In this document: piece after piece, positions 13,343 through 32,131 of the stretch
Layout: every line of letters starts with the position of its first letter
Position numbering within the stretch: the first letter of the stretch is position 1
Source: an uncultured Candidatus Bathyarchaeia archaeon
GTDB lineage: Archaea; Thermoproteota; Bathyarchaeia; 40CM-2-53-6
Length of the DNA stretch: 41,124 nucleotides
NCBI GenBank assembly: GCA_964353625.1
Contig: CAYGWT010000331.1
Location: 1 to 41,124 of the forward strand
Reading direction: 5' to 3'
Position numbers and translations under genes: made by a program
Notes under the pieces: generated by a model
Seen by the model: the letters and a program-made list of their open reading frames with translations, nothing else
Databases searched by the model: none
What the model was told of the DNA's origin: nothing

Positions 13343-13898
13343 CCCCGGTCATGACATACTGTTCAAAGTTCTTGGCGATGTTGATAACATCCTGCACAAC
13401 AGCCGGTTGATCACAACCAGGCAGCGCCAGATAGGCTACTGCGGTAGAGAGACTGGACTGACGGATAATCAGGGCCTGCTTCTCCTTGTCGAACTCGAAA
13501 CGTTCACGATCGAGCTTGTTCTTCTCGTCCCACGTACTAGACACTTTCTCTCCTTGCGCTTGGCGCGTTTGGGCCGGGGTACGAGCCCTGGCCGGGGCAG
13601 CTGCAGCTTCAGCAACATAGTCAACAGCGTCTTTAGCAGCAACGCTGAGCCAGTCAATGAAGCCTTTGTCATTCTTCTTGGTCTCGATGGAGAAGATATC
13701 ACCCTTCTTCGCACCCTCGAGAGCTGCCCATACTTCCTTCGGAACTGCCCAGTCGAAGAGTTTCTTGCCATCGGTCTTTCCACCGAAGGTGAGATTCTCG
13801 AACGTGCAGCTCATTTGCTTGTTGGTACCTTGACCCACTTTCTTGGGTACTTCAGTAACCGTTACGTCAATGATCTTGATGTCCACTAGTTTCTCCAT
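13317..13898 (-). CDS. Hypothetical protein. A ssDNA-binding role is only a positional guess.
   Basis: It lies immediately downstream of the DNA polymerase. The N-terminal half looks beta-rich, followed by an Ala/Arg linker and a helical C-terminal half. I recognise no motif. Confidence 0.5.
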   Translation of the reverse strand: MEKLVDIKIIDVTVTEVPKKVGQGTNKQMSCTFENLTFGGKTDGKKLFDWAVPKEVWAALEGAKKGDIFSIETKKNDKGFIDWLSVAAKDAVDYVAEAAAAPARARTPAQTRQAQGEKVSSTWDEKNKLDRERFEFDKEKQALIIRQSSLSTAVAYLALPGCDQPAVVQDVINIAKNFEQYVMTGDAGNDEPK

Positions 13899-14623
13899 GC
13901 GGTCATTTCTTTCTCACTCAGGGTAGGTCCGACCTTAACTTCCCCTGTAAATAGCAGAGGGACTGGTACCCCCCACATTCTCTTGATGTTAGCTGATATG
14001 TCCCTAAAGGACTCGATTGCTGTCTTAGCTACTAGGTCAATCTCCTTCCGGCTCGGGCAGTCGTAAACGATACTGTCGTGAACCGTGTTCACAGACAAAG
14101 ATATCGAATTCTCTTTTCTGAGGCGGTTCCTCAGAGTGACTCTTCCTAGCAACACGATATCCGCCCCAGTACCTTGAACTGGCCAGTTCGTTAAGTCTGT
14201 CCACGGTATGCGTCCATCCGGGCGAAGTGGAACAGACCACGAGTTCCCCAGTGGTGACACAATCGGCTTCTTCTGCGCGATTAGCTGTGCCCACCGAGTA
14301 TGGCATTGATCAATCCCCCTGTACTTTTTGAAGAACTTTGCATTTAGGTCATCCCAATACTCGGGCTCCTTTGAAACATGGAAGAAGTCCGGATCCCTCG
14401 CAAACGCCCAACCTGAACCACGGTAAATGGTCCTGAATAGGAAACGTTTGGCAATGAGGCGCTCTGGTAGTTCGAGGACTCGTCGATTCTTTTCGTGAAT
14501 GTCCTTTTCTGGATCATCCGGGTTGGCATCTCTGTCATTGATCTCCTCTATGGCGATCGGATCGTTGGCTAGGTACGCTAGAACTCGCCATTCTAGCTGT
14601 GCTGCATCAATCTGAACAAACAT
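13886..14623 (-). CDS. Family A DNA polymerase, C-terminal part (motifs A to C)
   Basis: It begins MFVQIDAAQLEWRVLAYLANDP, which matches Pol I motif A (DYSQIELR). Motif B-like RLIAKRFLFRTIYRGSG and motif C VNTVHDSIVYD are present. The start is set to ATG 14623 because the ORF-track start at 14671 is a TTG. Confidence 0.85.
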   Translation of the reverse strand: MFVQIDAAQLEWRVLAYLANDPIAIEEINDRDANPDDPEKDIHEKNRRVLELPERLIAKRFLFRTIYRGSGWAFARDPDFFHVSKEPEYWDDLNAKFFKKYRGIDQCHTRWAQLIAQKKPIVSPLGNSWSVPLRPDGRIPWTDLTNWPVQGTGADIVLLGRVTLRNRLRKENSISLSVNTVHDSIVYDCPSRKEIDLVAKTAIESFRDISANIKRMWGVPVPLLFTGEVKVGPTLSEKEMTAWRN

Positions 14624-14624
14624 C

Positions 14625-14837
14625 TCATTTCCGATAGTTCCGCAGTACTGCCGGTACTTCCTTCTGCCCAAGAGAGTTTACCCTGTGGGTCGCCCAATCG
14701 ACAAACTCGGCATGGACCTCCGGGTACAGGATCTGAAGATCAAGAATGAATCCTCGTACCCCTTCCTCTTTGATATAGTCCCTTACGTCAGCTAGGATGT
14801 GGGCCTGCTCTTGCTCTTTGTTGCGGTTAGTGCTCAT
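14625..14837 (-). CDS. 70-aa ORF lying between the two DNA polymerase halves
   Basis: Translation is MSTNRNKEQEQAHILADVRDYIKEEGVRGFILDLQILYPEVHAEFVDWATHRVNSLGQKEVPAVLRNYRK. It overlaps the end of the N-terminal polymerase part by 11 nt and stops 2 nt before the ATG of the C-terminal part. No nuclease motif is evident. Confidence 0.45.
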   Translation of the reverse strand: MSTNRNKEQEQAHILADVRDYIKEEGVRGFILDLQILYPEVHAEFVDWATHRVNSLGQKEVPAVLRNYRK

Positions 14838-15966
14838 AGCGACTCCGGAAAATCGACTTCACGTTGCTAGCGATGTTCTGTAGATTCGGATCACTGCTGG
14901 ACAGCCTTGTTGTAACAGTGACACACTGATTGAACTGACCGTGGATAATGTCGTTCTCATAGTGCCGCTCCTCGTACTTCTCGAGTAAGCCTCGTAGATA
15001 AGTGCTGTTCAGTTTCTGTAGTTCCTTGATCCGCAGGATTCCTTGGATCAATTCCCCACCGCCCTTGAGTTGCACCAGGAACTCTTCGCTCACCGACCAT
15101 TGTCCTTCCTTCGCTAGCTCAGACCCTTTGACGGGTTTGTACATGCGAGGGAGCCGATGTTCTCTAACCTGGTTAGCAAACTTGGGTTCTCCCGTCTTCT
15201 TTCCGCTCTTGAATAAGGCACCAGTCGGAACCTTAACCACTTCTTCGATAGTACCCCCGTAAAGTAGAGCAGAAAGATGAGGGTTGCTACCCCAGTTGAA
15301 ATTGGGAACGTTATGAAATCGAAACAGAGACTGGCGGATCTTATCCACCTCCTGCTCTGCTTCAGTAGCTCGTTGCTCGATTTGTGGCCTATCAATCTTC
15401 AGCCCATTCCACTCCATCTCCTGTAGACCAACCAAGTCTTGCATCCTGAGACTTAGCAGTTTCCGCTGACTCTCTAGAATGTGCGTCTTGTAGAACTCAT
15501 ACAACCTGTAGGTCAACTCCGCGTCTTTTGCCGCATACTCAGCTAGGACTGCTCTGGGTACCTCGTGGGTGTTGATTCCTTTCTTCCAGTACTGTTCGGC
15601 GACAACATCGAGCTTATCTTCTCCGAGATGTCTAAGGGCACATCCAGAGAGAGAAGGATACGGTTGAACTTGTCCCCCGTGGATATACTCTGCAAGTTGA
15701 CAATCGTACACTCGTCGTTCACCAATGTCGTAACCCAGCTTCTGAAGCCAGTGGAGATCATACTTGAGATTAAAGCCGACGATGAGTTCAGCTTCTTCAA
15801 ATATTCTCCCAAAGTCTGCGCGGGTCTCAGGCCAGAAAACTCTCGTTTGTATAGGAGCGCCGGCTCTTTCTCGACAAGCGGTGGAAATGCAGACGTTGAA
15901 GTTTCTTGTGTCAAAGGGATTCCCCTTGTTCCAGGTTGTGTTCTCGGTGTCTACAGCGAGAATCAT
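14827..15966 (-). CDS. Family A DNA polymerase, N-terminal part (3'-5' exonuclease plus thumb/fingers up to the PNLQNI motif)
   Basis: Exo I is MILAVDTENT, Exo II is FNLKYDLHWL and Exo III is YAAKDAELTYRL. The ORF ends ...TRLSSSDPNLQNIASNVKSIFRSRYEH. Confidence 0.85.
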   Translation of the reverse strand: MILAVDTENTTWNKGNPFDTRNFNVCISTACRERAGAPIQTRVFWPETRADFGRIFEEAELIVGFNLKYDLHWLQKLGYDIGERRVYDCQLAEYIHGGQVQPYPSLSGCALRHLGEDKLDVVAEQYWKKGINTHEVPRAVLAEYAAKDAELTYRLYEFYKTHILESQRKLLSLRMQDLVGLQEMEWNGLKIDRPQIEQRATEAEQEVDKIRQSLFRFHNVPNFNWGSNPHLSALLYGGTIEEVVKVPTGALFKSGKKTGEPKFANQVREHRLPRMYKPVKGSELAKEGQWSVSEEFLVQLKGGGELIQGILRIKELQKLNSTYLRGLLEKYEERHYENDIIHGQFNQCVTVTTRLSSSDPNLQNIASNVKSIFRSRYEH

Positions 15967-16129: not shown

Positions 16130-17353
16130 TCAATCAATGTCCTCGTAACGGCCAATCTCGGGTTTGATTAGCACCATGAACTGACCATGTCTTGCACCTG
16201 GGTCAGTGTCGATATCGCCTGTGAGTTTGTTTTTGCAGATGTTCAGGAAGCGAGTGTACTCGAAGCCTTGGTCATATGTCTTACCAATGCCAAGGATCCA
16301 ATCTGCTTCTGCCTGCTTCGCTGTCTTAGCCTCGGCAACGTGGATCATTTGCAAGTAGCGTACCCCTTCGGCAGTCCCATCAGCTTGGCAGACTCCGATA
16401 ACAGGGCAGTAAGCCTTGGACAGCTCCCTACCCCATTGGTAGCACGCTCCGAGTTCCAGATCCCGGCGATCTGCTTTCCACCCTTGGATCTTGTCGATCT
16501 GGTCAAAGATCAACAAGGAGGGTTTCTCTTTCTCGACAAGCGACTCTACGGTATGACGGCTGATACCAGCACTGTCATACAGAAGAATCTTGTCTCGTAC
16601 CTTCTTCTTGTATGCCTCCCTTGCTCGTTCTGGATGCTTCAGGATCTGATCCTTGGTAGCACCTAGCGCAGATAGATAGTTTCGGAACTTGACATCCTCC
16701 CCGGCCTCCTCATTGTTGACCCAGAGGATAGGCCCGGCGTCATCGGCCAGTTGCTCAGCCATATGGGTAGCCTCAGAGGATAGGAACGTCGTCTTGCCAG
16801 TTTCAGGGCGTGCGAAGACGAAACCGAAATCACCCTTCCTGAGTGAGCCAAGCGCCCGATTGAGGCAGTTGAGTCTCCATCGCAGACCTGGCTGTTTGAT
16901 GTGAGTCTCGATGATGGATTCGAGATCGTCAGTGACATACTGCGGATCCTCAATTTGGTTTACTAGTAGTAAACGATCTGCGATCTCCTTGACAGCTTCG
17001 ATCGACTTCTTGCCAAGGGATGCTTCGTATGCAGCGAGGGACAAGTCCTTGCAGACCTGTTCGTGCTTGAATCGCTCTAGCAGCTGTCTTGCTGACGCTC
17101 CAGCATCCACGTTGGACATGGTGTTGAAGACAGTGCGCAGGTACTCCTTGTGCTTATCTGCTACCCCCCGAGCAAAGGTGACAGCAGCGATATCTTCGAG
17201 AGTGGGATCCTTCTCTTCGTACTTGAACCAGCGATCGATCGAGTGCAGTACAGGCCGTACCTCCGGAGAGAACTCCTCCTCCTTCAGGTACTGTCGATAG
17301 TCAGAGTAGACCCCACGATCAAGCAACAGCTTGAGCAGTGGTAGCTCGTACAA
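16130..17353 (-). CDS. DnaB-like / T7 gp4-type replicative helicase
   Basis: Walker A is FARPETGKTTFLS and Walker B is LLIFDQIDKI. The RecA-like C-terminal domain is typical of phage hexameric helicases. It uses a TTG start preceded by AGGAGG. Confidence 0.85.
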   Translation of the reverse strand: MYELPLLKLLLDRGVYSDYRQYLKEEEFSPEVRPVLHSIDRWFKYEEKDPTLEDIAAVTFARGVADKHKEYLRTVFNTMSNVDAGASARQLLERFKHEQVCKDLSLAAYEASLGKKSIEAVKEIADRLLLVNQIEDPQYVTDDLESIIETHIKQPGLRWRLNCLNRALGSLRKGDFGFVFARPETGKTTFLSSEATHMAEQLADDAGPILWVNNEEAGEDVKFRNYLSALGATKDQILKHPERAREAYKKKVRDKILLYDSAGISRHTVESLVEKEKPSLLIFDQIDKIQGWKADRRDLELGACYQWGRELSKAYCPVIGVCQADGTAEGVRYLQMIHVAEAKTAKQAEADWILGIGKTYDQGFEYTRFLNICKNKLTGDIDTDPGARHGQFMVLIKPEIGRYEDID

Positions 17354-17447: not shown

Positions 17448-17476
17448 ATTGTACCATGAAATTCGGTTTTTGTCAA
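17448..17476 (-). promoter_or_regulatory. Near-consensus sigma70-type promoter (minus strand) upstream of the helicase gene
   Basis: The minus strand reads TTGACA-aaaaccgaatttcatgg-TACAAT, with a 17-nt spacer and TGg giving an extended -10. Confidence 0.6.
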
Positions 17477-17483
17477 TCTGCTA

Positions 17484-17799
17484 TGTTGTATCGAAGCAAC
17501 ACTAGTCGTAGGTGTCTGATTTAACAGGCGATGCTTCGTCCCAGACTAGCTGCCCCTCCAAAGACTCAGGGCCGTACTCCATACAGATGTCGCAAAAATC
17601 CAACATCAGTTCTCGCTCTTGTTGCGAAAGTACAACACCACATCCCTTGCAGTGTGTCCGAATTACAACAACCTCCCGGAGTTCTACGTCCTCCTTCCCT
17701 GTAACCGGATCCCAGTGTTGCCGAATTACAACATCCTGTTGTTTTTCTGCAACATCTTGTTGTGTGTTTACAACACCTTCTTGTTGTTTTTGTGCAACA
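17484..17799. promoter_or_regulatory. Array A of the 18-bp palindrome TGTTG-N8-CAACA (six perfect copies plus one degenerate)
   Basis: Perfect copies start at 17484, 17620, 17716, 17737, 17758 and 17782. A degenerate copy (TGTGT...CAACA) starts at 17653. The 17484 copy ends 7 nt from the -35 of the 17448-17476 promoter. The others lie inside ORF 17502..17804. Confidence 0.7.
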
Positions 17800-17804
17800 G
17801 TCAT
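17502..17804 (-). CDS. Hypothetical 100-aa protein with a C-terminal CxxC...CxxC zinc ribbon. Its N-terminal half is encoded by the palindrome array.
   Basis: The ATG overlaps the upstream stop (ATGA) and GGAG lies 8 nt upstream. The C-terminal half contains HCKGCG...FCDIC. The N-terminal half has repetitive QQ(E/D)(G/V)VV(N/I) units caused by the DNA repeats. Confidence 0.45.
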   Translation of the reverse strand: MTVAQKQQEGVVNTQQDVAEKQQDVVIRQHWDPVTGKEDVELREVVVIRTHCKGCGVVLSQQERELMLDFCDICMEYGPESLEGQLVWDEASPVKSDTYD

Positions 17805-19580: not shown

Positions 19581-20188
19581 TAGTCGTATACCTCCTGTGG
19601 ATCCGCATCCTTACACGAATACCACAACAGATCAGCGAAGATAGCCACAAGGTCTCTCTGATCCTTTGGTTGACGAAGGCGGACCTTGATATCCTTCTTC
19701 TTGAGAACCCTGTTTACTGCTCTAGTAAACGAAACAGCATTCATGAGGGCTTTATCTCGATCCGTAATAGCTTCCTGCAATATCCGGATATCGTTTTGCT
19801 GCCTCCAGACTTGTCTCTGTAGGTTAGTGCTACGCTTTTTGTACACCTCTACCAAATAAGCGTCCCCTTTACCTTTAGGTACTTCTACTTCATCCTCTCT
19901 TAGCGGATCCGGAATGAAATACCGTTGTTGGGCGACGCCAGCAAGGAGCTGACCTAAGCCAGGATCCCCTGCGGCCGGAATCGCCTCCCGTACAGGGTTC
20001 ACAGGAACATCTCGCTGATTTGCAAGTTCCTCGAACAGCGCATCCGCGTCGAAAGGTTGTATCGGCTCACGCCGCACCTCTACTCTTGGCCGCTGTGGCA
20101 TGGGGGCAGGCCTTCGTTGCACCCCAAGGATCTCTTCGCGCAATCGTTGCCAATCAACGTTTGGATTTGGGTTATCGGGCATAGGCAT
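19580..20188 (-). CDS. Hypothetical protein
   Basis: It is a 202-aa ORF with a Pro/Arg-rich N-terminus, coupled to both neighbours. I recognise no motif. Confidence 0.55.
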   Translation of the reverse strand: MPMPDNPNPNVDWQRLREEILGVQRRPAPMPQRPRVEVRREPIQPFDADALFEELANQRDVPVNPVREAIPAAGDPGLGQLLAGVAQQRYFIPDPLREDEVEVPKGKGDAYLVEVYKKRSTNLQRQVWRQQNDIRILQEAITDRDKALMNAVSFTRAVNRVLKKKDIKVRLRQPKDQRDLVAIFADLLWYSCKDADPQEVYD

Positions 20189-20924
20189 TCGCTAGCTCCT
20201 TCAAAACGACAGCATACTCCTTTGCCTGTGAGTTGTCAACACCAGGCGCGGTGTTAACCTCGAGGACCAGTAGTTTACCGTCCTTCTTGCTCCGGATGAT
20301 ATCAACAGCACCAAAGTCGAGGCCGACAGCCTGCACTGCTTTGACAGCCAGTTCACGGATACCCTTCGGCTCCTCGATATCGTTCTTGCAGAACACGTAG
20401 CCGTTCCACCACGAGCGAATGTACTGGTCCTTCACTTCCACACCAGCACGCCTCTTCTTCTGCTGGACAAGGAAGGACTTTTCCTTAGTCGCATGGACGC
20501 GGTACTCTGCATCCTTCTGTACGTATTTGACGTACAGCGGGGCCTTGGGCAGCTCCGCATCACCACCCTTCAAGTTCACTATACCTTTTCCCGAATGGGA
20601 AGACAGCAGCTGCCTTGCGAACACCCGATCCCCCTTCTGTAGCCAGAACTTTGCCTCGGCTTTCTCTGGGGTCCACCCGGGTACTGGTACGCCGTGCAAA
20701 CTTAGTTGCTGGAAAGAGCTCAACTTGTTGCTTGCTATATCGGTTGAGGGATTCAGCATGTTCCGCTTGTACTTCGTAGGCGGCGCGGAGGATCCCCAGT
20801 TCACCACCAATGTATGCGCAGCAGGGGCCACAGAGTTCCGAATCATCCTCTTCCAACCCGTAGCGATCGAGATCGCTTTGGCCGATTGGCTGGTTCGATT
20901 GTACGGCCAGATCAGTACTTTCAT
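20172..20924 (-). CDS. ATP-grasp ligase (RimK-like)
   Basis: The pattern includes NKLSSFQQLSLHGVPVP..., SSHSGKGIV, YVQKDAEYRV and LDFGAVDII...LLVLEVNTAPG, which is the typical ATP-grasp C-terminal Mg/ATP motif. Confidence 0.75.
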   Translation of the reverse strand: MKVLIWPYNRTSQSAKAISIATGWKRMIRNSVAPAAHTLVVNWGSSAPPTKYKRNMLNPSTDIASNKLSSFQQLSLHGVPVPGWTPEKAEAKFWLQKGDRVFARQLLSSHSGKGIVNLKGGDAELPKAPLYVKYVQKDAEYRVHATKEKSFLVQQKKRRAGVEVKDQYIRSWWNGYVFCKNDIEEPKGIRELAVKAVQAVGLDFGAVDIIRSKKDGKLLVLEVNTAPGVDNSQAKEYAVVLKELANAYAR

Positions 20925-22294
20925 TGGAACCTCGAGAATTGTTGTTGGATGGCTTGCTTGTCGTGATTGTTGAGGCAGGAAGCTGAGTGTCCTTCGACAC
21001 AGTCTCCGCAGTAGAGCTTGACAAGTGCTCCCTGTCGTACCGCAACAACAGACGCGGGATCACTTTCATCAATGGCTCCTTGGCAGGACCAGCATTGCTG
21101 GGTTCTGCACATCTCTGCCCACTCTCCTTTGGGGAAAGTCTCCCCGCCATAGGTAACAACAGGTTTGTCAGCATTGGTTCCTCCATCTTCGACCTTATCC
21201 CAAACAATCTCACGATAACGAACAGTGTAGGTTGCTGTCTTGGTTTGGAAATCAAGACCAACAGCGACAACCATACCTACCCCGATATCACCCTTGCGTA
21301 CAGTTGTGGCTGACTCGGTGTTCCCAGTAACAAAATGAACCTTGTTACCTTTGACGTCATGACCAGTAAAGTGGCACTGACCATTGATCCATGTCATGTT
21401 ATCCACATGGAACTCGACGTTCTCCCCGATCTCATACTCGCGCTTGATCGAGTCATACGCAGCCTGCCCAACGACTGAACTCGGTGTGTGTGTATACTTG
21501 TACCGGTCATGCCCGCCGTGCGAAGAACCACGATTGAAGTTCGTCAATCCAGCTGGGTAAGCTTGGCCGGTCTTCGCATAGAACTTTGGGCGGTTTCCTT
21601 CGACCACCTCTCCTTCGACCATCTCCAGGGTCTCGACGTCAAATGTATACAGAGTATTGGCTTTGAACGATTTGATGCCTTGAGCTGTATAGATCTTGTT
21701 TCGAGCCGCTAGGTACTCAAGAGCTTCCTTCTCGGACATGATGTAGATCAGGTTGTTCGATTCAAGGTAGTGCAGCTCTCGTTCGTGGTTGCGCAGAATC
21801 TGAATCTGCTTCTTCTTGTTGTCGTACAAGATGATTGCCCAAGCTCCAGACAGATCGCCAATAGCCTCCTTCAGACCCTTCTCGGCAATAGCCTTGACCA
21901 TTCCATGAGAGTCTACCTCGACGTTATGCTCCTTGATATCGAGGCCTGAACGAATGGTCCCATTGTGTACAAGGGTGAACTCGTTCTCCCGGAACGGGTG
22001 AGCGTTCTGCTTATTCACCTTGCCCACAGTTGCCCATCTACCATGGCCGATCAACGCTCGTCCTGCGATCCCCTTGATCTTGAACTTCTCATAGGCCTTG
22101 TCGAACAGCAGATTGACAGATGGGCCTACTGTCTTGACGACTGGGCTTACCGACCCATCTGCGTCCACTGAGAAGCATCCCGATGAATGCCTCCCACGTA
22201 GCTCCGTCAATGTTCCCATCTGGGAGAAGATGTTGAACTCCGGATCGCCCACACCTATCTGGGACTTGTCGATGATTCCGTAGATACCGCACAT
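20921..22294 (-). CDS. Class II (Ntn) glutamine amidotransferase fused to an unassigned Cys-rich C-terminal domain of about 200 aa
   Basis: The start is set at MCGIYGII (nucleophile Cys2) with GGAAAGGAA upstream. GHGRWATVG and HNGTI follow. The C-terminal half (..CRTQQCWSCQG...YCGDCVEGHSASC) has no motif I recognise. Confidence 0.8.
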   Translation of the reverse strand: MCGIYGIIDKSQIGVGDPEFNIFSQMGTLTELRGRHSSGCFSVDADGSVSPVVKTVGPSVNLLFDKAYEKFKIKGIAGRALIGHGRWATVGKVNKQNAHPFRENEFTLVHNGTIRSGLDIKEHNVEVDSHGMVKAIAEKGLKEAIGDLSGAWAIILYDNKKKQIQILRNHERELHYLESNNLIYIMSEKEALEYLAARNKIYTAQGIKSFKANTLYTFDVETLEMVEGEVVEGNRPKFYAKTGQAYPAGLTNFNRGSSHGGHDRYKYTHTPSSVVGQAAYDSIKREYEIGENVEFHVDNMTWINGQCHFTGHDVKGNKVHFVTGNTESATTVRKGDIGVGMVVAVGLDFQTKTATYTVRYREIVWDKVEDGGTNADKPVVTYGGETFPKGEWAEMCRTQQCWSCQGAIDESDPASVVAVRQGALVKLYCGDCVEGHSASCLNNHDKQAIQQQFSRFQ

Positions 22295-22295
22295 G

Positions 22296-23141
22296 TCAGT
22301 TCCTTTCCGCGAAGTAAATCTTAGACCAAAGCACACCCTCTTCCATTGAATTCTGCAGCACAGTGGGAGGGAATATCTGTGCGGTTGCACCAAACACATT
22401 GGTTAGTAGTGCCTGGTACTCTGAGTTGGTGTTGAGTCCGGTTACTGTTCTTTCTACGGCTTCTGCTCCTTGTTTCTTGACGTAGGAATGTAGCTTAACG
22501 ATAAGCTGAATCCATCGCCGAAGCGTTATTGGATCAGCTGTTCCAGCCATATGGCGGAACTCCACAGTCCCAAACTTGGCGATACAGCTACCAACGTTCA
22601 GAGCACAGTACTTCCCTTCATCCCAACCGAAACGAACATCCTGTGGCATGATGTCAGTCAGCGGATAAGCAAAGCCATTAGCCCGCCTATCTTCCGGAAC
22701 CAACGAGAAGAACAGGTTCTCGAATACTGCGTAGAGTCCGATCAATGACCGCAGTTGTTCAAAGCTCCATGCCCTAACGTTGATATGGATGTGTACACTG
22801 CACCGATGAGACCAACGTGGCCTTTGGTCCTTCATTCCGTTTGCCAATTCACGCAAGGCGTAATCGATGTTCTTCCCAGCCACCGGAGTAGAGATCAGTT
22901 CTGCGCCATGATCCTTCAGCGAACCGTCCTTGTCCAGGTTCCAGTAGATACACTTCTGCGGCCACTTTTCTTGCGAGAACCCCTCAACCTCTACTTCGAT
23001 CCCGATTGGAATCTTGTAGCCCGAGAAGAAGGTCTTCAGTTCTTCGGAGTGATAGAACTTAGCTCCTTTCTCCTCGAGAGCACTCTGTAGAGGTAAGGCG
23101 ACTGGTCTTTCAACCAAGCCCCTAACCAGTTTGCTAGCCAT
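22296..23141 (-). CDS. Amidoligase_2-like (GS/GCS-fold COOH-NH2 ligase)
   Basis: The motifs GIEVEVEG, DGSLKDHGAELISTPV, CSVHIHINV and TVEFRHMAGT follow the pattern of the putative amidoligase family. Confidence 0.7.
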   Translation of the reverse strand: MASKLVRGLVERPVALPLQSALEEKGAKFYHSEELKTFFSGYKIPIGIEVEVEGFSQEKWPQKCIYWNLDKDGSLKDHGAELISTPVAGKNIDYALRELANGMKDQRPRWSHRCSVHIHINVRAWSFEQLRSLIGLYAVFENLFFSLVPEDRRANGFAYPLTDIMPQDVRFGWDEGKYCALNVGSCIAKFGTVEFRHMAGTADPITLRRWIQLIVKLHSYVKKQGAEAVERTVTGLNTNSEYQALLTNVFGATAQIFPPTVLQNSMEEGVLWSKIYFAERN

Positions 23142-23728
23142 TAAAGTACCTCCCGCAAGGCATCATACAACTCCTGTTGCACAGTGTTATAGAGAGGGAG
23201 ATGGAAATCCTTCCCGTTACGGGTACCAACCTTCTTCCACATGTAGTGGATATCGGTTGGTCCTAGGAACAGTCGATTGCTAATGGCCCCCCACTCGGCC
23301 AATGCCTGTTCCTTGTCCTTACGTTCGAACACAGGGCGTTGTCCGAACACATCGTGCTTGATCCAGGTATCGTTGGAGATATCACCTGCTCCACGGAAAC
23401 ACTGCCGATCTTTTCTACTGTCGTAGTAATACAGCGTGTGGGTTTGGTGGTTGACTCCAACGTAGAACAGCTTACGATGTTCCCGCACAATACACATATC
23501 TCTGGCGATGTAGCCCGAGGGAACATACTTGTATTGTGGTTCCCAGAGTGAGTAGCCATAGTTCTGGGGAGGCTCTACCAGAGCTGATCCTCTAGCATAA
23601 CCTACCAACGCTGTACCAGTCGCTCCGGTTACAAACACCGTTTGTGCAACACCAGTCTTCACGTTAAGAACCCTGGTCAAGGTGTTGCCAAACTTGCGCA
23701 TGTATGCCGCTGCATCCCACTCCTTCAT
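23141..23728 (-). CDS. Hypothetical protein within the amidoligase cassette
   Basis: It is 195 aa, with a TAATG overlap downstream and an ATGA overlap upstream. I recognise no motif. Confidence 0.55.
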   Translation of the reverse strand: MKEWDAAAYMRKFGNTLTRVLNVKTGVAQTVFVTGATGTALVGYARGSALVEPPQNYGYSLWEPQYKYVPSGYIARDMCIVREHRKLFYVGVNHQTHTLYYYDSRKDRQCFRGAGDISNDTWIKHDVFGQRPVFERKDKEQALAEWGAISNRLFLGPTDIHYMWKKVGTRNGKDFHLPLYNTVQQELYDALREVL

Positions 23729-24507
23729 TGAGGAACCTCCAGGCCGTACTGCTCGATCACCGACTGTGCACCGACCCTATCCCCGCTGTTGATGATCTCG
23801 GGAATGAAGTCCGGCAGGATGATACCCTTCCGCACTTCAGTCAGCATACGATTAACAACACGATACACCCACTCGATACGCTGTTGGGTAGTAGTCCAGA
23901 AGTTGGACGCGGTGCGAAACTCCACACCATAGGGCTTCATACGACACGCCCCTGCCTTGCCGTACAACTCTCGTCGGCGATCGTCCAGATCCACCATCAT
24001 ACCGGGCAGCGTGATGTACATATCCGCAGCACGGACAACAGTGAACATATCTTCCGGTTTGAAGTACTCGAAACCGAAATGCAGATGCCCGCCAGCCGAG
24101 CGAAGGAACGGGTTAGCCGCAGCAGGCCGAGGATTCCACTCCTTCGTATACGCATTGAGATCAGGATCACAACCCATGATCCATGCCCGATCATCCTGCA
24201 GTTCCGATTGAGGGAACACCACACTCGGCACGATGTGGACAGCAAGGCCCATCTGTCCAGCCGCATCTTCGATCAGATCACGCGCCGTGACGTTGCGATC
24301 AACCCACTCGTGCATACTTTGGGCAGGAGTGATGCCGTACTCGACGGCGCAGTTGTCCACTTGCACCGAGACCTCATTGGTCAGGGGCACGGGTTGGTCT
24401 TTCGTTCCATTGAACTTGTCAATTGCGGACACCGGCTCATTGGTGTACACAGAACGAAGGAACCATTCGGGATCACACCCGATCAGAAACTTAGGCGAGA
24501 TTGACAT
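23725..24507 (-). CDS. Second COOH-NH2 ligase-like protein (phiEco32-type, type 2)
   Basis: The N-terminal MSISPKFLIGCDPEWFL and later GGHLHFG are reminiscent of the phage COOH-NH2 ligase type 2 family. The start is set to ATG 24507. Confidence 0.55.
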   Translation of the reverse strand: MSISPKFLIGCDPEWFLRSVYTNEPVSAIDKFNGTKDQPVPLTNEVSVQVDNCAVEYGITPAQSMHEWVDRNVTARDLIEDAAGQMGLAVHIVPSVVFPQSELQDDRAWIMGCDPDLNAYTKEWNPRPAAANPFLRSAGGHLHFGFEYFKPEDMFTVVRAADMYITLPGMMVDLDDRRRELYGKAGACRMKPYGVEFRTASNFWTTTQQRIEWVYRVVNRMLTEVRKGIILPDFIPEIINSGDRVGAQSVIEQYGLEVPQ

Positions 24508-25096
24508 TGAGTTTGTCCTTGATAAGGGAACGAACGTACTGCGAGAAAGGGCTGTCCTTGTCAAGATACTCCGGGTGTCCTTGAACACCAAGCGAGTTAG
24601 TATCTTTCCAATAAACTACTTCTGCTTCTGGTTCACTGCATAGGGTTTTACCATCCGCATTTTCCTTTTCAAGGGAAAGAATATCCTTCGCCCAAGCTAG
24701 TAATTCACCACCAAAGGGGCGCATCATTTGATGGTGTGTCGAAGTAACTACGAATTCAGTATTACTACTCGTAGTAACCATATGGCTTCGGCCATGGTTC
24801 TTGACATTCTGCCATAGCTTGCCACCATTCATTGCACAGAGGAACTGTGCCCCCCTGCATATCCCAAGCATCGGGATTTTCAACTCAAGTGCTCGGAGAA
24901 AGATAGGCACTTCGATTGCATCCCTATCCGGATCAGAATAGGATGCGACGTTCTTCTCATGATACAGGGCGGGGTCAATATCAGCACCACCCCAGAAGAT
25001 GAGTAGATCCATCCGTTCTTCAACGTGCAGTGGATGGAGCACGTGTTTCGCTGCGCCGAAGTACGGATTGAACTCCACTACAGATCCGATTCTCAC
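24491..25096 (-). CDS. Class I glutamine amidotransferase / peptidase C26 (gamma-glutamyl hydrolase, PuuD-like)
   Basis: It contains LGICRGAQFL (nucleophile elbow) and GVQGHPEY (catalytic His). A GTG start at 25096 overlaps the upstream TAG, with GGAG 7 nt upstream. Confidence 0.75.
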   Translation of the reverse strand: MRIGSVVEFNPYFGAAKHVLHPLHVEERMDLLIFWGGADIDPALYHEKNVASYSDPDRDAIEVPIFLRALELKIPMLGICRGAQFLCAMNGGKLWQNVKNHGRSHMVTTSSNTEFVVTSTHHQMMRPFGGELLAWAKDILSLEKENADGKTLCSEPEAEVVYWKDTNSLGVQGHPEYLDKDSPFSQYVRSLIKDKLNVNLA

Positions 25097-26136
25097 TAGA
25101 CTTCTCCTCGTTCGTAGTGCCCGTAGTTCGGATCCCATCCATCATACACCCGATAGACAAGATCAGCTACAGCATTGTGCTCTTTCGCCGCATAGTTGGC
25201 GTTGCCTTGACGTAGATCTGCACGAAGGGCATTCAGTGCCTTGCCTAGTCTGTCCTCCTTGAAACGCCCCTTAGCATCACGAGGCATCTTGGCGGCGTGG
25301 GCCTTCAGTTTCTCACGGATGGCTCGCTTCTTTTTCAGATGCTGCTCATACCGATCAAGATCCCTGTGGAGCATATCAACTTCGTTCGGCACCTTCGCAG
25401 GGGGCTTAGCTACAGGCTTGGGTTCATCTGGGATAATGGGCAGATGGAAATGTTCACCGACCGCATACTCCCGAGGCGCATCCAACTGGCCTACAGTTTG
25501 CCCTCGTTGCCAGTACGAACCAGCACCTGAAGCACACCCCTTCATCTCCGCCATGCACTTGACCGCATCGAGGCGACGAAGCTTCTCGATAGGCACACCG
25601 ATAGGCACACCATCTGCAGGAGGTAGCTTGGCACGAAGGATATCCGTGATATACGCAAGCCCGTGTCCGTAGCTGTTATAGAACCAGCCACCATCATTGC
25701 GATAGTTTTCAGGGCTGCCGCTGCCACCAGCACGCCAAGCCATACCAACGATCGTAGCCATCGGATCGATCTTGTTCTCCATCATGTACTTAAAACAAAA
25801 CGGGTACGTTTTGTAGTACTCAAGAGGCTGTCGCAGCAGCGTGACGGCAAACACAAGTTGGCCGTAAGACCACTCCGGAGTCTGCCAATACCCGTTCGGC
25901 AGTACCGTGATCTGGAGGATCCTCTCAAGATGATCACGCCACTGATGGTAGTCCGCCTCCTCGGTAGAGCGAGGATTCTTCCGGTTAGCGAACCACTTGT
26001 GCTCCACACCAAACACAAATGATTGTGGGGCTGCTCGATCATACGGGGATCCCGTTCTCGCATAACTAAATACCCCTGCGGAACAGGCAGTGGATTTACC
26101 ATCCGCAGTAAGTAGATTGATGATCGGATTACCCAT
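25096..26136 (-). CDS. Hypothetical 346-aa protein at the head of the amidoligase cassette
   Basis: It is a long clean ORF with a basic coiled-coil C-terminal third. I recognise no motif. Confidence 0.6.
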   Translation of the reverse strand: MGNPIINLLTADGKSTACSAGVFSYARTGSPYDRAAPQSFVFGVEHKWFANRKNPRSTEEADYHQWRDHLERILQITVLPNGYWQTPEWSYGQLVFAVTLLRQPLEYYKTYPFCFKYMMENKIDPMATIVGMAWRAGGSGSPENYRNDGGWFYNSYGHGLAYITDILRAKLPPADGVPIGVPIEKLRRLDAVKCMAEMKGCASGAGSYWQRGQTVGQLDAPREYAVGEHFHLPIIPDEPKPVAKPPAKVPNEVDMLHRDLDRYEQHLKKKRAIREKLKAHAAKMPRDAKGRFKEDRLGKALNALRADLRQGNANYAAKEHNAVADLVYRVYDGWDPNYGHYERGEV

Positions 26137-29594: not shown

Positions 29595-29623
29595 ATTCTA
29601 CGCTTCGTTTGCCTGCCCGTCAA
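29595..29623 (-). promoter_or_regulatory. Sigma70-type promoter for the leftward early operon
   Basis: The minus strand reads TTGACG-ggcaggcaaacgaagcg-TAGAAT, with a 17-nt spacer. It lies about 70 nt upstream of ATG 29522. Confidence 0.6.
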
Positions 29624-29634
29624 CCCCCCCCCCC
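29624..29634. repeat. Homopolymer C11 (G11 on the minus strand) abutting the -35 element
   Basis: The plus strand reads caaCCCCCCCCCCCgCCCCg. The minus strand reads GGGGcGGGGGGGGGGGttgacg. Confidence 0.9.
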
Positions 29635-29641
29635 GCCCCGC

Positions 29642-29659
29642 TTTACTAGACCTAGTAAA
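29642..29659. promoter_or_regulatory. Palindrome copy S5 (no ORF attached), upstream of the early promoter
   Basis: TTTACTAGGTCTAGTAAA has perfect 8-bp arms (TTTACTAG/CTAGTAAA). It lies 18 nt upstream of the -35 at 29618-29623. Confidence 0.6.
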
Positions 29660-29833
29660 CTCGGGAAGATCCGCCGCTGACCCACGCGACAGCATCAGCC
29701 TAAACTTCAGCTGACAGGCAAATTGTAGCACGGGCAATGCCGGCAGTGGTTGTTGCCACGCAACGTTGTTTCTGCGCCACTTGACAAGGCCTTGGAATTG
29801 TGTTAACCGACCTTGTGAGTGAGCACTCACTAA

Positions 29834-29851
29834 CCTACTAAGCGTAGTAAA
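29834..29851. promoter_or_regulatory. Palindrome copy S6 (variant, no credible ORF attached)
   Basis: The plus strand reads CCTACT-AAGCGT-AGTAAA. It lies next to a second palindrome, GTGAGTGagCACTCAC, at 29815-29830. Confidence 0.45.
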
Positions 29852-29866
29852 CTCGCAACAAGGGGT

Positions 29867-30281
29867 TGTTGTAAGAAAGCAACAAATGTCTGGACTACGG
29901 GCGAGCGCAAGGTATTGTTGTATTTACGCAACAGCTCGCCCCTAAAAGTATATGCTCGCTTAGAATGATTCTTATTCAGACCCCCCGGGTGGGGGGAAAA
30001 GTCCGGGCTTTAGTCCGTGCGAAAGGGTGCTTCGCACAATGCGCACGCTTTTTTGAAACAGGGTCTCCGGTTTAGCGGAGCTAAACTGGCAGTGAAGCTC
30101 TGCTTCACCGCATAGACTGTTGTATTTTTACAACAGTTCTTACAGAAGTGTTGTATTTTTACAACAAAGTGTTGTTTTTTTGCAACATGTACCCACGAAG
30201 TGTTGTATTTTCGCAACACTTTTGAGTGGGTGATCCCGCAAAAGCGGGATTTAGTCCCGAAACTGTTGCTTTTTTGCAACA
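29867..30281. promoter_or_regulatory. Array B of the 18-bp palindrome TGTTG-N8(9)-CAACA (seven copies)
   Basis: Copies start at 29867, 29916, 30117, 30148, 30169 (N9), 30201 and 30264. The spacers are T-rich (TATTTTTA twice, TATTTTCG, CTTTTTTG). The last copy ends 15 nt before the -35 at 30297. Confidence 0.75.
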
Positions 30282-30296
30282 GATTTCGAGACATAC

Positions 30297-30325
30297 TTGA
30301 CAAAATCAAAAAAATATGCTATAAT
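30297..30325 (+). promoter_or_regulatory. Perfect-consensus extended -10 sigma70 promoter for the rightward arm
   Basis: The sequence is TTGACA-aaatcaaaaaaatatgc-TATAAT, with a 17-nt spacer and TGc immediately upstream of the -10. Confidence 0.75.
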
Positions 30326-30484: not shown

Positions 30485-31207
30485 ATGCTCACTGACGTAG
30501 AGAGGTTGAAGGACCGAGAGGCTAAGAAAAGGGTTCCAGGAGGTTGGTTCTCCGACAAACAGAAGCTCGAGGCTGTGCAGATGTGGCTCATCACCGGGTC
30601 AATGCCAGCTACCGCTGCTGCCCTGAACATAAACGTTAGCACGATTGAGAAGTGGAGATATACTGACTGGTGGAAGGAACTCTCTGACCAGATCAAGGCT
30701 GAGGGGAGGGTTAAGCTCTCCGGTAGGCTGCAGAAGATCGTTGGCCGGACCTTGGACCAGCTGGAGGACAGGATCGAGAATGGTGACTTCATCCTGGATA
30801 GCAAGACTGGGCAGATCGTCCGTAAGCCACTGATGGCCAGGGACCTGACCCGAATCACCACAGATTTCATGGCTTCCAGCCAAAAGCTGGAATCCGTAAC
30901 CAAAGAGGAAGCTACTGTCCAGGCTATCGAAGACCGGTTGAAGCTCATCGCCGAGAACTTTGCTTCCTTCGCCAAGAAGGTCAGGAAAGTGGAGGTGGAG
31001 GATTTGACACATGTGGAGCAACTGTCTGTTCTGGGCACTGAGGCAGAGGTTATCGAAGGGGGGACACCTCCTTATCGGGAGGAGCCCGGGGACACTGATC
31101 CTCAGGACCTACTGGATGGATCCGGAGAAGAGGATCTGGTACTTCGCCCCGCTGAGACCGAGGAAAGCCCCACTGTCCTACTTCCACAAGTTCCTGTTCA
31201 AGGGTAG
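30485..31207 (+). CDS. HTH protein, probably a terminase small subunit (Sf6 gp1-like N-terminal HTH); could alternatively be a regulator
   Basis: ATG 30485 is preceded by GGAGCGGAGG. The N-terminal DKQKLEAVQMWLITGSMPATAAALNINVSTIEKWR looks like a helix-turn-helix, followed by a coiled-coil oligomerisation-like region and an acidic tail. Confidence 0.5.
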   Translation: MLTDVERLKDREAKKRVPGGWFSDKQKLEAVQMWLITGSMPATAAALNINVSTIEKWRYTDWWKELSDQIKAEGRVKLSGRLQKIVGRTLDQLEDRIENGDFILDSKTGQIVRKPLMARDLTRITTDFMASSQKLESVTKEEATVQAIEDRLKLIAENFASFAKKVRKVEVEDLTHVEQLSVLGTEAEVIEGGTPPYREEPGDTDPQDLLDGSGEEDLVLRPAETEESPTVLLPQVPVQG

Positions 31208-31222
31208 ACCCAGGAGACTGAT

Positions 31223-31861
31223 TTGAGTGATATCGGAACCTATGTAAGGGGTGGGGTGATCATTGATCCCTACTCCCAGATGTATTATGGCACCCCGTAT
31301 GGGGGCGACTATGGTATTGGGTGGAGGGACCTGGTAGGAAACCCTACTGTCCGGGGTGTAGGTGCTGCTGATCCTGACTGGAAAGCGATAACCGGTCTGA
31401 CAGGGATGTGGGGGTATTCCTTCTCTGCGTCTACGATGCAGCAGATCTGGTTCACCTTCCACCTTGACCACGACTACGCTCCAGGCACCCCGATCTATCT
31501 GCACGTTCACTGGCTGAACGCTGCTGCGGTCCCCAACACCGGTAATGTTCGCTGGGGGCTCCAGTATACCTACGCCAGAGGACACCAGCAGCAGGCATTC
31601 CCTGCCGCTACCACTGTCTATGTAACCCAGGCAGCACAATCTACCCGTTACATGCACATGATCGCTGAGGTGGCAGATGCGGACGTAGTCCCATCCACTA
31701 ACCTGCAGACTGACGGATTGTTGCTTGTCCGTGCCTTCCGGGATGCTGCTAACGCTGGGGATACCTGTACCGATGAGGTGTTCATGCTGACCATGGACTG
31801 CCACTACCAATCTGACCGGCACGCTACCAGAAACAAGGCACCGGACTTCAATGCCTACTAG
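31223..31861 (+). CDS. Hypothetical protein (possibly structural)
   Basis: It is 212 aa, with a TTG start and AGGAG 6 nt upstream. I recognise no motif. Confidence 0.55.
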   Translation: MSDIGTYVRGGVIIDPYSQMYYGTPYGGDYGIGWRDLVGNPTVRGVGAADPDWKAITGLTGMWGYSFSASTMQQIWFTFHLDHDYAPGTPIYLHVHWLNAAAVPNTGNVRWGLQYTYARGHQQQAFPAATTVYVTQAAQSTRYMHMIAEVADADVVPSTNLQTDGLLLVRAFRDAANAGDTCTDEVFMLTMDCHYQSDRHATRNKAPDFNAY

Positions 31862-31870
31862 AGGTGCCAG

Positions 31871-32131
31871 ATGCCCAAGATTGCAGAACGGCTGACTCGT
31901 CAGCTTCGTGGTAGGGGGGAGAAGGAGCCAAAAGCTCTTGCCTATGCCCTGCTGAACAAGATGGGACATATGAAGAATGGGGAGCTAACTGCCAAGGGAA
32001 AGGCCCGGAACGCCATGACCCCTGGAGAAAGAGCCAAGGATCGGCAGGCTAGCTACACTGGCCGGAAACCTTCGGACTTCAAGTACAACCCGAAAACGAA
32101 CCAAGCCACTGTAAAGCGAGGTAGCCGATAA
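31871..32131 (+). CDS. Hypothetical basic 86-aa protein
   Basis: It is Lys/Arg-rich and has a TAATG overlap with the next gene. Confidence 0.5.
   Translation: MPKIAERLTRQLRGRGEKEPKALAYALLNKMGHMKNGELTAKGKARNAMTPGERAKDRQASYTGRKPSDFKYNPKTNQATVKRGSR

Follow-up and report, generated by a model that had tools for sequence, protein, structure and literature searches.

In the window (the whole 41,124-nt stretch of DNA that was analysed), perfect copies of the palindrome TGTTG-N8-CAACA lie beside the promoters of two operons, one for packaging and structural genes and the other for replication genes. An exact scan of the window found 13 such sites, compared with 0.14 expected from dinucleotide-preserving shuffles, and none of 100 of these shuffles contained 13. 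All 13 sites were confined to two clusters, cluster A at 29867-30281 and cluster B at 17484-17799. This agrees with an earlier interpretation made from the letters of the DNA (the sequence-only reading), which had counted 13 perfect copies in two clusters. The fuller form of the palindrome is TGTTGY-N6-RCAACA, 18 bp in length.

Cluster A comprises seven sites, starting at 29867, 29916, 30118, 30149, 30170, 30201 and 30264. Four of these starts had been placed correctly in the sequence-only reading and the other three one base too early (30117, 30148 and 30169), while the copy to which a 9-nt spacer had been assigned, at 30170, was found to have a spacer of 8 nt. The promoter-proximal site, TGTTGCTTTTTTGCAACA at 30264..30281, is an exact match, ends 15 bp upstream of the -35 element of the rightward promoter and is centred at about -59.5 relative to the predicted start of that promoter. 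Four phased sites occupy 30118..30218 (starts 30118, 30149, 30170 and 30201; spacings 31, 21 and 31 bp), with centres at approximately -205.5, -174.5, -153.5 and -122.5 from the same predicted start. The two distal sites, 29867-29884 and 29916-29933, are also exact matches and are nearer to the leftward early arm; the site at 29916 is flanked by an outer inverted repeat, GGGCGAGC/GCTCGCCC. Successive spacings among the five proximal sites are 31, 21, 31 and 63 bp, the third having previously been given as 32 bp and the other values being unchanged. Their best period is 10.45 bp (R = 0.99), which bears out the earlier proposal that the distances are close to whole helical turns. The spacers of cluster A are T-rich, again in line with the T-tracts originally described.

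Cluster B contains six perfect sites, starting at 17484, 17620, 17716, 17737, 17758 and 17782, and two near-sites at 17588 (one mismatch) and 17653 (two mismatches). Its promoter-proximal site, at 17484..17501, is 7 bp upstream of the -35 element of the leftward promoter, with the centre at approximately -51.5. The other five perfect sites and both near-sites (17588..17799) all lie within an ORF of 100 aa, spaced by 32, 33, 63, 21, 21 and 24 bp when the near-sites are included. The best period for cluster B, computed independently of cluster A, was 10.6 bp (R = 0.84).

Both clusters adjoin a predicted sigma-70 promoter. The rightward promoter beside cluster A, TTGACA-17-TGcTATAAT at 30297..30325 on the plus strand, scored 12/12 with the TG extension, the best match in the window. 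Its predicted start is at about 30332, and it heads the operon for the TerS-like protein, TerL and structural proteins. The leftward promoter that adjoins cluster B, TTGACA-17-TGgTACAAT at 17448..17476 on the minus strand, was the second best at 11/12 with TG and heads the operon for the DnaB-like helicase and DNA polymerase. These were the only promoters in the window to score at least 11/12 with a TG-extended -10, one beside each cluster. The perfect consensus promoter downstream of cluster A had been correctly recognised in the sequence-only reading; the second cluster had been recorded there as well, but the consensus promoter beside it was missed.

The first gene downstream of the rightward promoter (30485..31207, plus strand) encodes a TerS-like protein of 240 aa with an N-terminal HTH, for which Pfam gave only a weak N-terminal match to HTH_23/HTH_28. 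The label TerS-like, carried over from the earlier interpretation, is reasonable by synteny, since in Alcaligenes phage vB_Af_QDWS535 and in MW202796 a homologue is encoded directly ahead of TerL. On the leftward side, the promoter is followed first by the gene for a DnaB-like replicative helicase (16130..17353, minus strand; phrog_19, E 1.8e-50; Pfam AAA_25 and DnaB_C). The 100-aa ORF that hosts the five perfect sites (17502..17804, minus strand) translates to a zinc-ribbon protein with the pattern CxxC-N15-CxxC, an orphan with no match in Pfam or PHROG, and its AlphaFold model had a pLDDT of 49.6, too low for use. The sole homologue among 1.84 billion representative proteins was P0002, at 59-69% identity. 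The gene for P0002 is likewise located upstream of an AAA_25 helicase gene and the repeats described below are kept in the protein; the DNA that encodes it gave no match in the metagenome scan.

The five perfect sites in the ORF encode V(V/A)xxQQ peptide repeats in the zinc-ribbon protein. When codons were resampled given the protein sequence, the probability of all five sites being perfect was P = 3.6e-7, and all five were retained in one of 200,000 resamplings. The five sites in the coding sequence are maintained at the DNA level through synonymous codon choice, and they provide a clean example of a DNA-level constraint overlapping a protein-level constraint.

The motif was absent from most relatives of the window. 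INPHARED held no close DNA relative, and the closest isolate to the lineage of the window is an Alcaligenes phage. In contigs L334 and L335, with TerS-like proteins 68% and 64% identical to that of the window, exactly one perfect site was present in each. This was the TGTTGCTTTTTTGCAACA 18-mer of the promoter-proximal site, located in diverged non-coding DNA 250-270 bp upstream of the TerS-like gene. The more distant relatives L199, L203 and L190 had two to three sites in the corresponding control region, and among these is the same 18-mer as the sites at 30118 and 30149 of the window.

Outside this lineage, the motif was found beside promoters of unrelated phages. At least about 35 non-redundant unrelated viral cases, T4-like phages included, showed a site followed by 8-15 nt and then TTGAC(A)-16/17-(TG)TATAAT; the IMG/VR scan took only site pairs within 32 bp, prevalence and the peak in the offset are uncalibrated, and related contigs inflate the counts. 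A promoter-like match was present within 35 nt of 28% of the 325 viral sites listed, compared with 6.2% of random positions, and in strictly non-coding DNA the values for the sites listed were 29% near a promoter-like match compared with 11.4% (p = 8e-5). An A-tract was seen between the site and the -35 in other phages, and the spacings of adjacent sites in the viral loci peaked at 20-22 and 30 bp among the matches listed. An unrelated contig, L116, had a 30/20/31 site spacing, as in the stretch 30118..30218 of the window. The position of the site relative to the promoter was variable: T4-like contigs had sites upstream of many promoters, P22-like contigs had a site over the -35 region both at the TerS promoter and at a promoter that follows the portal gene, and in L116-type contigs, where the promoter is TTGACA-17-TAGTAT, a site covered approximately +2 to +19. 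An exact two-site scan of bacterial genomes matched very diverse taxa and was uninformative on the host. The literature searched contained no report of TGTTG-N8-CAACA or its variants.

Taken together, the palindromes are best interpreted as phased putative binding sites for a dimeric regulator of both promoters, to which a probability of roughly 0.55 was assigned. The sequence-only reading had offered an operator array as one of three explanations, and it is the best supported of them: the clusters abut both consensus promoters, the sites are dyad-symmetric, phased and held at the DNA level in the coding sequence, and in other phages the motif keeps a fixed distance to sigma-70-type promoters or covers their -35 or +1. 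The further suggestion that the regulator is phage-encoded found no support. Mechanistically, a sequence-specific dimer with two-fold symmetry would occupy each TGTTG(Y)-N6-(R)CAACA duplex. At the proximal site, with its centre at about -52 to -60 in a class I position, the dimer would contact RNA polymerase, the C-terminal domain of alpha being the probable target. More dimers would load cooperatively at the upstream sites, which are placed on a common helical face at 2, 3 and 6 turns, and these dimers may bend or wrap the T-tract DNA. With the proximal contact and same-face loading operating at both arrays, both promoters would be switched together. Activation or recruitment would be the usual sign for a protein at the proximal position, as for class I CRP sites and for Fis at rrnB P1, while a protein bound over -35 or +1, as the site is placed in other phages, would repress. 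As the position in the window is of the activation type and the overlaps in other phages are of the repression type, the regulator is probably dual, both activating and repressing. If this reading is right, the array would be a control switch that couples the replication operon with the packaging and structural operon in an uncultivated phage lineage.

Several features weigh against a regulator. Both promoters are already of consensus type and would need no activator. The distances from the proximal sites to the -35 differ by 8 bp, short of a whole helical turn, and the transcription starts behind all of the centre positions are predicted ones. In addition, the layout of cluster B, with tight dyads in a small gene beside the helicase gene, fits a replication origin too.

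The search for the protein that might bind the sites covered both the window and the other motif-bearing loci. All-against-all clustering of the ORFs within 3 kb of the sites in the 120 viral loci listed yielded only TerL and lineage-specific families. A phmmer comparison of all window proteins with the motif loci returned only TerL, portal, replication enzymes and genes of an amidoligase cluster, together with two small, functionally unassigned ORFs as marginal matches. Among 30 window proteins compared with Pfam, there was no Ogr_Delta, CRP/FNR or other defined DNA-binding family beyond the weak HTH of the TerS-like protein. Neither the zinc-ribbon nor the HTH protein, both nominated as binders in the sequence-only reading, had a homologue in the other phages with the motif. 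The zinc-ribbon protein, a candidate binder or DksA/TraR-like factor, belongs to an orphan family of two members, and the TerS-like protein was rejected as the binder from the phylogenetic distribution of the motif. Since the motif occurs in unrelated lineages and none of the proteins common to the window and the motif-bearing loci stood out as a binder, a factor that is encoded by the host or is horizontally mobile is more likely than either of the two window proteins.

The same palindrome beside promoters in phages with no other shared genes would point to an unrecognised common regulator, and its identity would explain how transcription is timed or tuned in the motif-bearing phages. Tentatively, and with the odds somewhat against it, the motif may be the recognition site of an undescribed conserved host factor or of the product of a small gene that is mobile among phages. 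In that case T4-like, P22-like and QDWS535-like phages would mark and co-ordinate strong sigma-70 promoters through this motif, the usual place of the site being about 57 bp ahead of the start, with occasional overlap of the core promoter. With 13 sites connected to its replication and packaging operons, the window would be an extreme example. A phage regulon across lineages would then be defined by the motif, which could also be usable as a host-range marker. More generally, it could serve as a signature for promoters, and possibly for hosts, in metagenomic phage genomes.

Alternatively, the sites could be iterons for an origin-binding dimer, with cluster B forming an origin of the lambda/P22 type inside a small initiator gene. 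Cluster A would then act as a further origin or as a partner in cis, comparable to ori and crr of P4, and the promoters would provide transcriptional activation. An origin had also been among the three explanations of the sequence-only reading; it was judged unlikely, but cluster B does resemble such origins. The iterons of the lambda origin sit inside gene O, and an arrangement of the lambda type, at least four dyad iterons about 20-24 bp apart in a gene beside a helicase gene, is found at 17716, 17737, 17758 and 17782. There, 18-bp dyads 21, 21 and 24 bp apart lie in the 100-aa ORF directly upstream of the replicative helicase gene, are phased with T-tracts and encode a repeated peptide. In other contigs, for example L094, TGTTG..CAACA arrays are similarly found inside the ORF that precedes the helicase gene, and QDWS535 and MW202796 have a promoter with a (TA)n stretch at two places, the divergent region and the vicinity of the helicase gene. 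The cumulative GC-skew minimum falls at approximately 30 kb, although this is not independent evidence because the switch in skew coincides with the switch in gene strand. Set against these points, no recognisable initiator was found, the zinc-ribbon protein being without homology to O or gp18, no enrichment of DnaA boxes was seen beside the arrays, and no AT-rich unwinding element clearly stood out there. In cluster B, the AT content was 62-68% only around the promoter and at 17740-17800, with no discrete block. Other features that differ from a lambda/P22 origin are the second, larger array in a control region and the presence of the motif at promoters of unrelated phages. An origin also leaves unexplained the single sites over -35 or +1 of late promoters elsewhere, after portal genes and before TerS, and the closer relatives of the window retain only the single promoter-proximal site.

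Packaging was another of the explanations first proposed, the array consisting of phased, bent boxes that are wrapped by the small terminase of the first downstream gene, as in SPP1 pacL/pacR or lambda cosB. The likeness lies in repeated, phased and bent elements just upstream of a small-terminase gene, and the TerL is of the Mu-like headful type. In 34 of the 120 motif-bearing viral loci listed, a TerL of one BLAST family is encoded within 3 kb, with a site pair ahead of the operon for TerS and TerL. The repeats in the region are different in each of three phages, those of the window, QDWS535 and MW202796, and the three also differ in the recognition helix of the TerS-like HTH. Nevertheless, boxes that co-vary with the TerS family at a single terS locus, as would be typical of pac or cosB, were not observed. 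The motif precedes TerS genes of at least four families without homology to one another (the HTH type of the window, the Terminase_2-like protein of L199, F2 and F7), and MW202674, with a TerS homologue of the F2 type, has no site anywhere in its genome. Cluster B is 12.5 kb away in the replication module, and sites are also found after portal genes and at many T4-like promoters. The SPP1 and lambda boxes lack perfect dyad symmetry and serve one TerS family at a single locus, and a perfect dyad would fit a dimer better than a TerS ring. Given the non-homologous TerS families, the missing sites and the second cluster in the replication module, the packaging explanation is disfavoured and was considered very unlikely.

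It is still less probable, to the point of being remote, that the sites act as nucleic-acid hairpins, either as promoters for an N4-type virion RNA polymerase or as RNA stem-loops that stabilise or regulate transcripts: some sites do fold well as RNA (-10.6 to -11.5 kcal/mol) and the L116-type site is at the 5' end of the predicted transcript, but across the sites the arm sequence is fixed and the folding energy varies between -3.2 and -11.5 kcal/mol, and conserved arms with variable hairpin stability argue for protein recognition of duplex DNA. A 1928-aa virion protein matched PHROG 2206, "virion RNA polymerase" (E 1.4e-9), but only over residues 779-977, a segment that also matches "internal virion protein with endolysin domain", and the protein had no match to the N4 polymerase or other solved structures. 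A virion RNA polymerase with hairpin promoters was rejected, the 200-residue match being shared with endolysin-domain internal virion proteins. Promoter hairpins of N4 have 3-nt loops. The N4-type combination of a virion RNA polymerase with a 5-7 bp stem and 3-nt loop is not present here, where the loops are 6-8 nt. Cluster A lies upstream of its promoter with no promoter match reading back through the array, the sites matched no Rfam family, and a tRNA search gave no match.

Returning to the preferred reading, a dimeric regulator of both promoters, the arrangement was compared with known systems. At rrnB P1, Fis sites I-III form a phased upstream activating region. Both this promoter and class I CRP promoters resemble the window in having a dimer site about 55-62 bp upstream of the start, with further sites at whole turns, and in the A/T-rich, bendable DNA at the arrays. 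Class I CRP/FNR sites are centred at -61.5 or whole turns beyond it, from which the predicted proximal centres of -51.5 and -59.5 would differ, and the half-site TGTTGY is not TTGAT, TGTGA or a Fis core. Fnr-type boxes have a TTG-N8-CAA core (PMC6256036), which is contained in the window motif. The full CRP/FNR forms (TGTGA-N6-TCACA or TTGAT-N4-ATCAA) were not found, position 4 of the half-site being T or C rather than A. In the IncP-1 KorA/KorB system, one operator palindrome serves several promoters and gives co-ordinated control. Its sequence is different, and nothing resembling ParB or KorA was found among the proteins; the likeness is in the reuse of a palindrome at varied positions relative to the core promoter, whether upstream, overlapping or distant.

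The zinc-finger activators Ogr, Delta and B of P2, P4 and 186 bind an 18-bp dyad, TGT-N12-ACA, centred near -55 (PMC3931495). This form fits all 13 sites of the window, and the left half TGTTGT occurs in P2 sites. In both cases the site closely precedes the -35 region of late and packaging operons, the motif is common to several promoters, and the window also encodes a small zinc-ribbon protein. P2, however, has one imperfect site per promoter and no good -35, whereas the window has arrays of perfect sites at consensus promoters. The predicted centres of -59.5 and -51.5 are close to -55, but the -35 is a perfect TTGACA where a poor one is typical. Membership of the Ogr/Delta group was rejected: the form of the site agrees, but the window proteins scanned contain no Ogr_Delta domain, the -35 is of consensus type and the genome is not P2-like. 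The zinc ribbon of the window, CxxC-N15-CxxC, differs from the CX2CX22CX4C of Ogr_Delta. A CX2CX22CX2C pattern does occur at the C-terminus of a 257-aa exonuclease, but this protein belongs to phrog_403.

An exact scan of the 41,124 bp window found 13 perfect TGTTG-N8-CAACA sites. On average 0.14 were expected, and 13 were reached in none of 100 dinucleotide-preserving shuffles. The sites formed two clusters, in agreement with the sequence-only reading. Cluster A (29867-30281) contained seven, starting at 29867, 29916, 30118, 30149, 30170, 30201 and 30264. Three of these starts had previously been placed one base off while the others stand, and the copy described as having a 9 nt spacer was found to have an ordinary 8 nt one. 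The cluster A spacers were indeed T-rich. Cluster B contained six perfect sites (starting at 17484, 17620, 17716, 17737, 17758 and 17782) and two near-sites at 17588 (one mismatch) and 17653 (two mismatches). The usual extended form of the palindrome was TGTTGY-N6-RCAACA. A variant site, TGTTGT-N7-GAGAC(A), in which AGACA replaces CAACA as the right half, was seen in the window's close relatives L334 (about 395-420) and L335 (about 2510-2530) and in one unrelated contig, L102 (3300-3345). The recurrence of this variant suggests TGT-N12-ACA as the invariant core.

Consensus scans over the whole window revealed only two promoters with at least 11/12 hexamer matches and a TG-extended -10. The first, TTGACA-17-TGcTATAAT at 30297-30325 (+), matched 12/12 and heads the TerS-like/TerL/structural operon. 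The second, TTGACA-17-TGgTACAAT at 17476-17448 (-), matched 11/12 and heads the helicase/DNA-polymerase operon; this promoter, belonging to cluster B, had been overlooked in the sequence-only reading. Both would be expected to be strong by themselves. The nearest palindrome ended 15 bp before the -35 of the rightward promoter and 7 bp before that of the leftward promoter. Taking the transcription start as 7 nt past the -10, the predicted site centres were -59.5, -122.5, -153.5, -174.5, -205.5, -407.5 and -456.5 for the rightward promoter, and -51.5, -155.5, -187.5, -220.5, -283.5, -304.5, -325.5 and -349.5 for the leftward promoter. When periods of 8 to 14 bp were scanned, the best fit was 10.45 bp (R = 0.99) among the proximal five sites of cluster A and 10.6 bp (R = 0.84) for cluster B. 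This places the sites of each cluster on a single face of the helix, and the earlier observation that the spacings approach whole helical turns holds.

Five of the perfect cluster B sites lay within the 100-aa ORF at 17502-17804 (-) and are translated as V(V/A)xxQQ repeats. The product is a zinc ribbon (CxxC-N15-CxxC). A search of 5.8 billion clustered proteins and 1.84 billion representatives gave a sole homologue, P0002, which retains the repeats and whose gene is also upstream of an AAA_25 helicase gene. Synonymous codons were resampled from the phage's own codon usage with the protein sequence fixed. The probability of all five sites being perfect given the protein was 3.6e-7, and all five were kept in one of 200,000 resamplings. 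The in-ORF sites are under DNA-level selection.

The motif was sought in IMG/VR by exact scan for two sites within 2-32 bp, with related contigs counted individually. At least 120 loci carried such pairs; in those listed, spacers were 74% A+T against a background of 58%. Among the matches listed, adjacent-site spacings peaked at 20-22, 30 and 45 bp. At least 34 loci had, within 3 kb, a gene for TerL belonging to a single BLAST family, and there the site pair was upstream of the TerS-TerL operon. Three placements relative to a promoter recurred among the matches listed: upstream of the -35, overlapping the -35 region, and at the transcription start. The upstream placement, in which the site is followed by 8-15 nt and then TTGAC(A)-16/17-(TG)TATAAT, accounted for at least about 35 non-redundant cases, including T4-like contigs whose DNA polymerase was 52% identical to a cyanomyovirus one. 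In P22-like contigs, the site overlapped both the TerS promoter (CAACA, 9 nt, TATAAT, then the start codon) and a post-portal promoter (CAACA, 7 nt, TATAAA). In L116-type contigs, a TTGACA-17-TAGTAT/TAATAT promoter following the portal gene had a single site covering about +2 to +19. A promoter-like match (at least 9/12, within 35 nt) accompanied 28% of the 325 viral sites listed compared to 6.2% of random positions; outside long stop-free frames the values were 29% and 11.4% (Fisher p = 8e-5). An adjacent TGTTG-N8-CAACA pair, 20 bp start to start, was also conserved in several thaumarchaeal genomes (Nitrosopumilaceae and Nitrosotalea; L241, L252, L265, L276); this is probably an unrelated archaeal regulatory element.

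We consider it somewhat better than even (probability about 0.55) that the arrays bind a candidate regulator acting on the two promoters. Each dyad-symmetric site would be bound by a dimeric protein, the promoter-proximal dimer touching RNA polymerase from a class I position and the phased upstream dimers binding with cooperativity along bent T-tract DNA. This would co-regulate the replication operon and the packaging/structural operon, and the same protein could repress where, as in other phages, the site overlaps the -35 or +1. Of the earlier proposals, an operator array for a dimeric phage regulator was the best supported as regards the array, given that both consensus promoters are abutted, the sites are phased and the DNA is under selection. 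It was not supported as regards a phage-encoded zinc-ribbon or HTH binder. The few families common to the window and other motif-bearing loci included no plausible binder. Since the identical motif occurs in unrelated lineages and is absent from their close relatives, a host-encoded or horizontally mobile factor appears more likely. No host clade emerged from a bacterial-genome scan for the motif, and the literature searched for several written forms of it contained nothing relevant. The sites of phage P2 bear a real resemblance to those of the window, sharing both the form TGT-N12-ACA and TGTTGT as the left half. Membership of Ogr/Delta was rejected: the Ogr_Delta domain was not detected in the 30 window proteins scanned against Pfam, and the window promoters have perfect -35 elements. 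Operator and upstream-activating arrays are an already known kind of element; the notable features here are the recurrence of the motif across lineages and the maintenance of sites within coding sequence.

A replication origin is an unlikely alternative reading of the arrays. The ori of phage lambda is located inside gene O, a layout that cluster B mimics, but no known initiator family could be recognised, a discrete unwinding element did not stand out, DnaA boxes were not enriched, and the GC-skew switch coincided with the gene-strand switch. An origin would also leave unexplained the single sites that overlap promoters in other phages. That the motif comprises TerS-specific boxes of a pac site, as also suggested earlier, is improbable. 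It occurs beside four or more TerS families that are not homologous to one another (the HTH type of the window, a Terminase_2-like type in L199, F2 and F7), and the second cluster sits in the replication module. Moreover, no site occurs anywhere in the genome of MW202674, although it encodes an F2 homologue and its TerL shares 71% identity with the one from motif-bearing L089. A hairpin function is very improbable, as the predicted RNA folding energies of the sites varied from -3.2 to -11.5 kcal/mol while the arms stayed conserved, which favours a protein reading duplex DNA.

The motif was absent from most relatives of the window, including eighty helicase relatives (43-52% identity), eight TerS-like relatives (31-40% identity), and the genomes QDWS535 and MW202796. 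The control regions of the latter two carried other repeats, namely a G-rich tract, (TA)n stretches and consensus promoters. QDWS535 (L211) had ten TCCTAA-N2-TTAGGA palindromes across the early arm (25208-48092), and near-identical modules of a consensus promoter plus (TA)n at two places, before the helicase gene and within the divergent region (31819-31922, 48500-48600), a two-locus pattern that parallels the two clusters of the window. The closest metagenomic relatives, L334 and L335 (TerS-like proteins 68% and 64% identical), each had exactly one perfect site, TGTTGCTTTTTTGCAACA, identical in sequence to the window's promoter-proximal site. It lay 250-270 bp upstream of the TerS-like start in otherwise diverged DNA. 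Three AT-rich, more distant relatives had two or three sites each in the corresponding control region: L199 and L190, which encode portal homologues (L199 also a weak TerL match), and L203, with homologues of the helicase, polymerase and primase. One site of this set was the 18-mer TGTTGTATTTTTACAACA, found in the window at 30118 and 30149. Based on the sites kept in these five relatives, the proximal site is the conserved core and the window arrays its expansion. At 1-630 of L203, two inverted-repeat copies of ~68 bp, each with TTGACA-17-TATAAT, faced each other across about 500 bp containing a bidirectional terminator-like hairpin beside a C8 tract and a TGTTG site pair.

The window appears to be a complete or almost complete phage genome made up of two divergent arms. 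On the minus strand, the arm from about 29.8 kb down to 7.2 kb contains small early genes, an amidoligase/amidotransferase cluster and genes for primase, a DnaB-like helicase, a family-A DNA polymerase in two pieces, exonucleases and ribonucleotide reductase. The plus-strand arm covers 30.5 kb to the end of the window and continues to 7 kb; it encodes the HTH protein, TerL, portal, a GroES-like protein, major capsid protein, a 1928-aa virion protein and endolysin. No INPHARED genome matched at the DNA level. By protein similarity, the nearest deposited genomes were Alcaligenes phage vB_Af_QDWS535 and metagenomic MW202796, both of the same architecture. In both, a homologue of the 240-aa HTH protein is encoded immediately upstream of TerL, which justifies its TerS-like label. 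The 1928-aa protein (102-5888 +) was considered as a virion RNA polymerase and rejected. Its PHROG match was limited to residues 779-977, a segment also present in internal virion proteins with an endolysin domain from Ralstonia and Xanthomonas phages, and no solved polymerase structure matched. Residues 1037-1866 were 26% identical to a hypothetical protein of QDWS535, and the protein is probably an ejection protein.

The amidoligase cluster (20172-25138, -) comprises ATP-grasp (RimK-like), class II glutamine amidotransferase, amidoligase, COOH-NH2 ligase and class I amidotransferase genes. It is conserved, being also present in QDWS535 and contig L107, and may be a peptide- or nucleotide-modification pathway. 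The DNA polymerase occupies two ORFs (13886-14671 and 14827-15966, -) with a 70-aa ORF between, a split annotated identically in QDWS535 and MW202796. At least four early genes on the minus strand had a second palindrome family, TTTACTGGAG(A/C)TAGTAA-ATG, at their start codons (27452, 28103, 28394, 28663, 29524; also 24762 and 29643). In this family the Shine-Dalgarno GGAG occupies the loop of a 6-bp hairpin, the 3' arm of which continues into the ATG, and the family may be a translational operator or RBS-presenting hairpin. Related non-coding copies lacking GGAG were present at 29641-29660 and 29835-29853. G+C-rich hairpins (CCCCCCGGGTGGGGGG, GTGCGAA..TTCGCAC with T6, CTCCGG..CGGAG and GTGAAGC..GCTTCAC) were observed between the distal and proximal cluster A sites, at 29980-30100 and 30226-30257, with a repeated element CGGG(C/A)TTTAGTCC at 30004 and 30245; Rfam contained nothing matching these regions. 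A leftward promoter-like site, TTGACG-17-TAGAAT at 29595-29623 (-), from which the first early gene would be transcribed, had its -35 directly abutted by a C-rich tract (11 C, one G, 4 C) at 29624-29640. G/C-rich tracts adjoined TGTTG..CAACA arrays in unrelated contigs as well, and some relatives had them within the divergent region or a short way upstream of the helicase gene (contigs concerned: L116, L200, L102, L203, L190, L210, L211, L030 and L024).
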